Of a stretch of DNA of 64,000 nt, positions 27,642-27,691 are shown piece by piece. Location: the NCBI RefSeq assembly GCF_054482595.1, contig NZ_CM137008.1. One strand, written 5' to 3'. Each line of letters starts with the position of its first letter. Position 1 is the stretch's first letter. A program made the translations under genes and the position numbers. The notes beneath the pieces are model-generated. The model was not told where the DNA came from, did no database searches, and saw only the letters and a program-made list of their open reading frames with translations.

Positions 27642-27691
27642 TTACGTAAAATGCTGTAATTTCTATCTAGGGTTACGTAAAATATCACGTA
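27642..27691 (+). promoter_or_regulatory. Putative DndB operator in the dndBCDE promoter
   Basis: 11-bp direct repeat TTACGTAAAAT at 27642 and 27673 (31 bp apart); the second lies in a TACG-N10-CGTA motif (27674..27691), the DndB autoregulatory site type as I recall it. Confidence 0.45.

Follow-up and report, generated by a model that had tools for sequence, protein, structure and literature searches.

The closest described counterpart of the locus analysed here is the dndB promoter of Salmonella enterica Cerro 87. DndB of this strain (DptB) binds two regions of the dndB promoter in EMSA and DNase I footprinting, and each bound region contains a 5'-TACGN10CGTA-3' palindrome (He et al. 2015, PMC4507180). 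The protein is a 79-kDa homodimer that shifts only a 123-bp fragment ending at the dndB ATG (-85 to +38); fragment B1 is bound by DndB and drives lacZ, and the protected regions are BB1 (-72 to -40) and BB2 (-14 to +4, complementary strand) (PMC4507180). Binding is greatly reduced when the outer half-sites are replaced. Without dndB, reporter activity and dnd transcription go up and PT about doubles, and Cys29 is needed for normal regulation (PMC4507180). The start site of Cerro 87 is a BPROM/NNPP prediction, the text of the paper being without RACE or primer extension (PMC4507180). Therefore, the placement of -10 and -35 elements relative to the boxes is putative.

DndB regulation resembles C-protein/C-box systems in that an operon-encoded regulator acts on paired palindromic operators in its own promoter, and in the feedback between modification and restriction. 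The C proteins, such as C.PvuII and C.AhdI, are helix-turn-helix proteins that begin as activators and later repress, with the restriction gene as their usual target. In contrast, DndB has a DGQHR / ParB-Srx-like fold and a reported role in repression only, and its target is the modification operon. The only candidate regulator at the locus is DndB, which is not a small helix-turn-helix protein and does not belong to the C-protein family. The comparison with ParB-parS rests on membership in the ParB-like superfamily, on a palindromic site, and on modulation by a nucleotide. ParB is modulated by CTP, and work by Xia et al. in 2019 is said to have found that ATP modulates DndB autoregulation. 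Unlike ParB, DndB functions in promoter repression rather than in chromosome partition, and it is not known to spread or slide. A caution has been raised that this ParB-superfamily protein might have an enzymatic role, that of an NTPase or nuclease, and not be a transcription factor only (Krishnan et al. 2024, PMC10853773).

Here we describe the corresponding region of an Escherichia coli dnd locus, positions 27602-27724 of the window (the whole 64-kb stretch of DNA that was analysed). This region is very probably an autoregulated dndBCDE promoter with two 18-bp palindromic DndB operators 43 bp apart.

The dnd-dpt cluster and the boxes upstream of dndB

As in Cerro 87, dndB is the first gene of dndBCDE and dptFGH lies nearby. 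All four dnd genes score above the NCBIfam equivalog cut-offs (Table 1). DndB matches the Pfam family DndB, TIGR03233, and the DGQHR domain family TIGR03187, and no other family; none of the solved structures has detectable sequence similarity to it. Its N-terminus, MASVDADYCYSFPAIRGIQAGRPFYIATCPM, contains Cys9 and Cys29, and the five positions chosen for mutagenic primers in the Cerro 87 study all have Cys codons, indicating that Cys29 and the other four cysteines are retained.

Table 1 Positions of the regulatory and coding features in the window.
Feature	Position	Strand	Details
dndB promoter/operator region	27602-27724	+	123 bp before the ATG; equivalent of fragment B1 of He et al. 2015
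Distal box 1 (~BB1), predicted DndB site	27631-27648	.	TACAcaattcattaCGTA; A27634 instead of G
Proximal box 2 (~BB2), predicted DndB site	27674-27691	.	TACGtaaaatatcaCGTA, exact; overlaps a -10-like hexamer and the predicted start
Repeat copy 1	27642-27652	+	TTACGTAAAAT; right half-site of box 1 (TTACGTAA) and allele-specific -10-like TAAAAT
Repeat copy 2	27673-27683	+	TTACGTAAAAT; left half-site of box 2 and conserved -10-like TAAAAT
P1, -35-like CTGTAA	27654-27659	+	18-bp spacer to TAAAAT; within conserved CT(G/A)T(A/G)A
P1, -10-like TAAAAT	27678-27683	+	Inside the box 2 spacer; implied start ~27688-27691
P2 candidate, allele-specific	27624-27652	+	TAGATA (27624-27629), 17 bp, TAAAAT (27647-27652); overlapped by box 1
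Shine-Dalgarno-like GGA	27715-27717	+	7 nt before the ATG; GGATTAC kept in most alleles
Two nested perfect 10-nt inverted repeats	27651-27660/27717-27726; 27676-27685/27706-27715	+	Repeat search
dndB, 361 aa, presumed box binder	27725-28810	+	DGQHR / ParB-Srx-like; TIGR03233, 462 bits (cut-off 328); PF14072, 468 bits
dndC	28807-30441	+	Above cut-off; dndCDE matched by TIGR03183, TIGR03185, TIGR03184
dndD	ORF 30383-32431; RefSeq start 30431	+	Above cut-off; RefSeq annotation of the identical strain W5-6
dndE	32431-32787	+	Above cut-off; NCBIfam equivalog
dptH, dptG, dptF restriction operon	34563-42577	-	TIGR03237, TIGR03236, TIGR03238

Several neighbouring genes were also noted. A second DGQHR/DndB-like gene (32846-34006, minus strand) is located between dndE and dptH; one in-frame stop splits it into parts of 101 and 281 aa, which RefSeq names 'DndB' and 'DGQHR domain-containing protein'. 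Next to this paralogue is an AgrB-family ORF (34007-34525, minus strand). In E. coli B7A, the same position is taken by an ATP-dependent nuclease and a DUF262 protein. The interval that separates the modification module from the restriction module thus resembles a slot for variable cargo. A frameshifted ProQ/FinO-family pseudogene (26747-27262) and an 895-aa autotransporter (24187-26874), both on the minus strand, precede the dnd module. The ~460 bp before dndB (27263-27724) are unannotated, and only the last ~125 bp are common to other dnd alleles. An integrase gene (45927-47192, minus strand) lies ~3.3 kb beyond dptF, with an Adr-like adhesin and a phosphoethanolamine-transferase-like gene in between; in B7A, an integrase is beside tRNA-Leu, ~200 bp beyond dptF. 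The arrangement is consistent with a dnd-dpt cluster carried on an integrative island.

A pattern search places the two copies of the 11-mer 31 bp apart, start to start, exactly where the first-pass annotation had read them. The window contains one exact TACG-N10-CGTA site, TACGTAAAATATCACGTA, which includes the second copy, again as annotated. Its end is 33 nt upstream of the dndB ATG, slightly closer than the 35 bp or so that had been estimated. Only this proximal box had been recognised, but a distal box, matching at seven of the eight specified bases (TACA for TACG), had been overlooked. Together, the boxes span the region 34-94 nt before the ATG.

We mapped the window onto Cerro 87 by the coordinates given in the paper and by primer B1-R. 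When box 2 is set at -14 to +4, position 27688 becomes +1, 27648 becomes -40, and box 1 falls at exactly -57 to -40. The distal box ends exactly at -40, where BB1 ends, and the offset of 43 bp from box 1 to box 2 is the one implied by the published coordinates (PMC4507180). Box 2 and the ATG are separated by 33 nt in the window and by 34 nt according to the Cerro 87 coordinates. The leaders are nearly identical as well, TTTTAC(AC)GGATTACAGC then ATG: primer B1-R reads TTTTACACGGATTACAGC then ATG, and the window reads TTTTACGGATTACAGC then ATG. Thus, the DndB operator architecture invoked by the first-pass annotation is supported: the boxes lie where He et al. 2015 placed theirs (PMC4507180) and stand out by phylogenetic footprinting (see below).

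The window allele differs from that of Cerro 87 in three respects. First, the Cerro 87 primers differ from the window dndB by roughly 10-20%, and primer B1-F (TCTCAGATATGGAACCCT) is absent from the window, as it is from 84 dnd loci and five further Salmonella loci. Second, the distal box of the window has the core substitution TACA. Third, a 1-nt deletion in the window yields the 11-nt direct repeat and an extra -10-like hexamer. In E. coli genomes, no allele was identical to a 59-nt query assembled from the Cerro 87 primers, and a metagenome scan for the Cerro 87 promoter gave six unrelated chance matches only. The Salmonella protein P0122, chosen for NNFEEC as a candidate for Cerro 87 DndB, was rejected as it is the S. 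diarizonae allele.

The sequences GAAC, GTTC, and GATC (PT/Dam sites) are absent from 27600-27724. Therefore, modification of the operator itself would be outside the mechanism. A 9-nt direct repeat, AATTCATTA, is also found in this region, at 27636-27644 (the box 1 spacer) and 27696-27704 (just 3' of box 2); the AATTCA of the downstream copy is kept in most enterobacterial alleles.

Enrichment and conservation of the boxes

In the window, the exact TACG-N10-CGTA motif occurs once against 0.51 expected, which is not significant (at least one occurrence in 35 of 100 shuffles), and matches with at most one mismatch are at chance level (14 observed, 16.6 expected). The 11-mer with at most one mismatch occurs four times against 1.67 expected, a count equalled in 9 of 100 shuffles. 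The self-complementary palindrome TTACGTAA, which holds both TACG and CGTA, has four copies against 0.82 expected (0 of 100 shuffles), all of them in the dnd/dpt cluster. The remaining copies of the palindrome are in the restriction operon, inside dptH (37448-37455) and at codons 6-8 of dptF (42555-42562). The dptF copy is present in B7A too; being coding sequence, its conservation is uninformative. The significance of the boxes comes from their position and conservation, and the statistics of the window alone leave chance possible.

To set the window against related loci, we surveyed 80 gammaproteobacterial dndB loci, one genome per species, with protein identities of 56-97%. The upstream sample comprises 150 bp per locus (12,000 bp in total) and the remainder of the locus DNA 467,075 bp. 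The exact N10 box occurs 33 times upstream of dndB, in 25 loci, and once in the remainder, an enrichment of about 1000-fold. TACG-N11-CGTA is also enriched, with 15 exact matches upstream and 2 in the remaining 467 kb, whereas every other spacer gives 0-5 matches and no enrichment. An exact N10 or N11 box is present within 150 bp upstream of dndB in 40 of the 80 loci. With the window added, there are 41 such loci, and in 36 of them the exact box closest to the ATG starts 41-59 nt ahead of it. Because it is enriched upstream of dndB and fixed in position across loci, the site is, as judged by this comparison, a conserved functional element tied to dndB. Taken with core columns that are invariant across 19 alleles (see below), the same enrichment and conserved position refute the notion that the motif arose by chance in an AT-rich promoter, which the counts in the window had permitted and which is now scarcely credible.

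The survey also bears on the recognition sequence. The N11 box replaces the N10 box in Pseudomonas, Alteromonas, Pseudoalteromonas, Colwellia, and relatives; the nearest exact box starts 41-53 nt before the ATG in the Alteromonas group and Neptunomonas and 71-93 nt before it in Pseudomonas. Mismatches across loci are mostly at the outer positions 1 and 18, and the main core mismatches are those in box 1 of the window and in the proximal box of one Pectobacterium. Paired palindromes are found upstream of dndB in Enterobacterales, in several other loci, and in most Vibrio-type loci. The centre spacings of the two-box loci are 12-17, 30.5-33, 41-45, 53, 73, and 94 bp. Helical phasing of the boxes was considered, as the longer spacings hint at it; with 44 bp making ~4.2 turns and few loci to judge from, the idea was dropped.

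Loci of Vibrio, Aliivibrio, Grimontia, and others, as well as three MAGs, are without ACGT boxes. In most of these loci, dndB is preceded by palindromes of another kind, frequently by a pair of them. Those of the Vibrio group are ACAAAC..GTTTGT and TGACATA..TATGTCA, and the three MAGs have GGAAGT/ACTTCC palindromes. This pattern suggests that operator specificity diverged with DndB while the palindromic-operator layout was retained. The operators seem to form classes (N10, N11, Vibrio-type ACAAAC/TGACATA, and ACTTCC) that co-diverged with DndB across the Gammaproteobacteria. We found no earlier description of this pattern in the papers that we read.

Within E. coli, a homologous promoter is present in 186 of 5,426 complete genomes. 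The window allele is the commonest dnd allele among them, as 124 of the 186 genomes, including strain 55989, are identical to the window over 27600-27724. Homology among the E. coli alleles begins at ~27598-27630, and the DNA further upstream is unrelated. Six other alleles have unrelated DNA upstream (IS3 remnants, an H-NS pseudogene, a Zorya gene) and are similar to the window from only ~30 bp before box 1. Alleles S51, 800, SE11, and B7A share a layout with boxes at -90 to -97 and -47 to -53 and at most one mismatch, and the same layout, likewise with at most one mismatch, is found in most of 15 species-representative loci whose DndB is at least 93% identical.

Conservation was read from an alignment of 19 enterobacterial alleles. 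Four blocks stand out: box 1, (G)TACGCAA....T.ACGT; CT(G/A)T(A/G)A between the boxes; box 2, TTACGTAAAATAT..CGT, which is almost invariant; and GGATTAC(A)GC-ATG in the leader. The box cores are invariant or nearly so, whereas the DNA between the boxes and upstream of box 1 is divergent. Position 4 of box 1 is G in 18 of the 19 alleles, the window allele alone having A. S51, 800, and SE11, among others, have an exact box 1; in B7A, JNE082640, and ST2747, the box ends in CGTG. The G-to-A change may weaken distal DndB binding. As the mismatch is in the core, box 1 of the window may be bound poorly or not at all.

The same comparisons bear on which protein recognises the boxes. ACGT-core palindromes could in principle serve other proteins, and the boxes might be bound by a host ACGT-core factor or by the DGQHR paralogue between dndE and dptH, a second DndB-like ORF within the cluster. 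However, the boxes accompany dndB across many genera and between unrelated flanks, the paralogue, disrupted by an in-frame stop, is missing from E. coli B7A, where the boxes are retained, and direct DndB footprints are known for the Salmonella orthologue (PMC4507180). Recognition by another regulator is thus very unlikely, and the E. coli DndB of the window probably binds these boxes itself.

Candidate promoters, the direct repeat, and the leader

All 19 alleles have the same box 2 spacer with TAAAAT (TAAAATAT), but the box 1 spacer differs among them. Therefore, box 2 appears to be under an extra constraint, most simply that of a -10 hexamer. The candidate promoter P1, which uses this hexamer, is the best sigma-70-like pair in 15 of the 19 alleles by a heuristic with textbook sigma-70 weights, and it agrees with the predicted start of the Cerro 87 paper (box 2 at -14 to +4). 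P1 has a weak -35 element (3/6) and is not called in a stricter consensus scan. That scan calls a second candidate, P2, with 9 of 12 consensus matches. P2 exists because of the allele-specific 1-nt deletion, and it has the top heuristic score in the window allele only. Promoter-like sites number 3 against 1.7 expected in 900 bp, and P2 is not significant alone. Either P1 or P2 may be the promoter in use.

The first-pass annotation had described the site by its direct repeat. In an alternative reading, the 11-nt copies would be functional in themselves, either as tandem promoters with TAAAAT as the -10 hexamer or as repeated binding sites, and the boxes would be incidental. Both copies consist of TTACG followed by TAAAAT, the scan pairs TAGATA over 17 bp with the first TAAAAT, this pair has a higher heuristic score than P1 in the window allele, and the repeat is also present in S. 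diarizonae, as TTACGTAAAATA. However, the full 11-mer is repeated only in these two, the window allele and Salmonella diarizonae, among the 19 aligned alleles. In most of the others, copy 1 contains or is followed by one more base (TTACGTAAAGAT, TTACGTAAAAAAG, TTACGTGAAAAAG), and the final T of the hexamer is lost. The conserved feature is instead the TACG-N10-CGTA spacing, enriched as described above where other spacings are not. In addition, the conserved outer half-sites lie outside the repeats, and their mutation cut binding (PMC4507180). A functional direct repeat is accordingly improbable. Since its copies are the inner half-sites of the two boxes, each set within the palindrome TTACGTAA with A-rich DNA after it, and most alleles lose the 11-mer, the direct repeat is, from the alignment, a by-product and not the functional unit.

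The nested inverted repeats of the leader (Table 1) link two upstream stretches, the -35 region and box 2, with the translation start of dndB (Shine-Dalgarno sequence and start codon). They raise the question whether the leader acts at the RNA level, by folding back in read-through transcripts and hiding the dndB ribosome-binding site and start codon (insulation). Two perfect nested 10-nt inverted repeats are present, a hypothetical read-through RNA (27645-27740) folds at -19.6 kcal/mol (z -2.29) with an outer helix that covers the GGA and the AUG, and one clean compensatory change is seen in Mixta. However, covariation over the 19 alleles is not above controls: 77% of cells are paired, which is equalled in 89 of 500 shuffles, and just 2 pairs are changed on both sides. 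A conserved RNA structure of the nested repeats is therefore not supported, although the fold is thermodynamically plausible for read-through RNA. The helices are broken in several alleles, and a transcript initiated at the predicted start is not significantly structured (z -0.30). Rfam gave no credible family either: the sole hit in 27000-28000, mir-2944, is a chance match that reaches 20.8 bits (E 0.27) where the gathering score is 56. Moreover, a fold-back leaves the palindromic spacing of the boxes unexplained, although it could coexist with an operator. RNA-level action is thus very improbable as the explanation of the site, and we return to DNA operators that DndB probably binds.

Proposed regulation of the modification operon

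In the proposed mechanism, a DndB homodimer would occupy each box. The proximal box encloses the -10-like TAAAAT and the predicted start at ~27688, and DndB bound there would therefore exclude RNA polymerase. The distal box is just upstream of the -35-like CTGTAA, and DndB at this site would reinforce repression. Because dndB is the first gene of its own operon, the result would be negative feedback that caps the levels of DndCDE and hence the density of PT marks. DndB binding, the dimeric state, repression, and the approximately two-fold rise of PT on deletion are properties of the Salmonella orthologue that are carried over here by analogy.

The element had also been proposed to set the balance between modification and restriction. 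This part of the proposal could hold only by way of the modification operon, as no box precedes dptFGH: no site with at most one mismatch is present in 42578-43138, the 560 bp upstream of dptF. The balance would therefore be set from the modification side only.

DndB self-control has already been shown in Salmonella, and the E. coli locus is most likely an ordinary case of it except for a one-base defect in one site. Our results do not overturn the current understanding. The cross-species survey supports the suggestion made in 2015 that DndB regulation is widespread (PMC4507180), and it indicates that the recognition sequence is not universal among DndB loci.

Feedback by DndB decides the genomic PT density and hence influences how safe the cell is from its own DptFGH nuclease. 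Scarce modification leads to self-restriction and SOS induction, and excess modification has its own costs (PMC4507180; 2018 FEMS review). A bolder reading, possible though rather doubtful, is that the commonest E. coli allele is an operator/promoter variant with a changed set-point and, more broadly, that DndB operators have co-diverged with DndB. If this is true, the G-to-A change in box 1 and the new -10-like TAAAAT with a usable -35 element could relax the feedback by DndB and so bring dndBCDE expression and PT density above those of the B7A, SE11, or Cerro 87 alleles. The operator of this prevalent E. coli allele provides exact targets for engineering or de-repressing PT modification, and a natural single-base operator variant of this kind could explain differences in PT level between strains.
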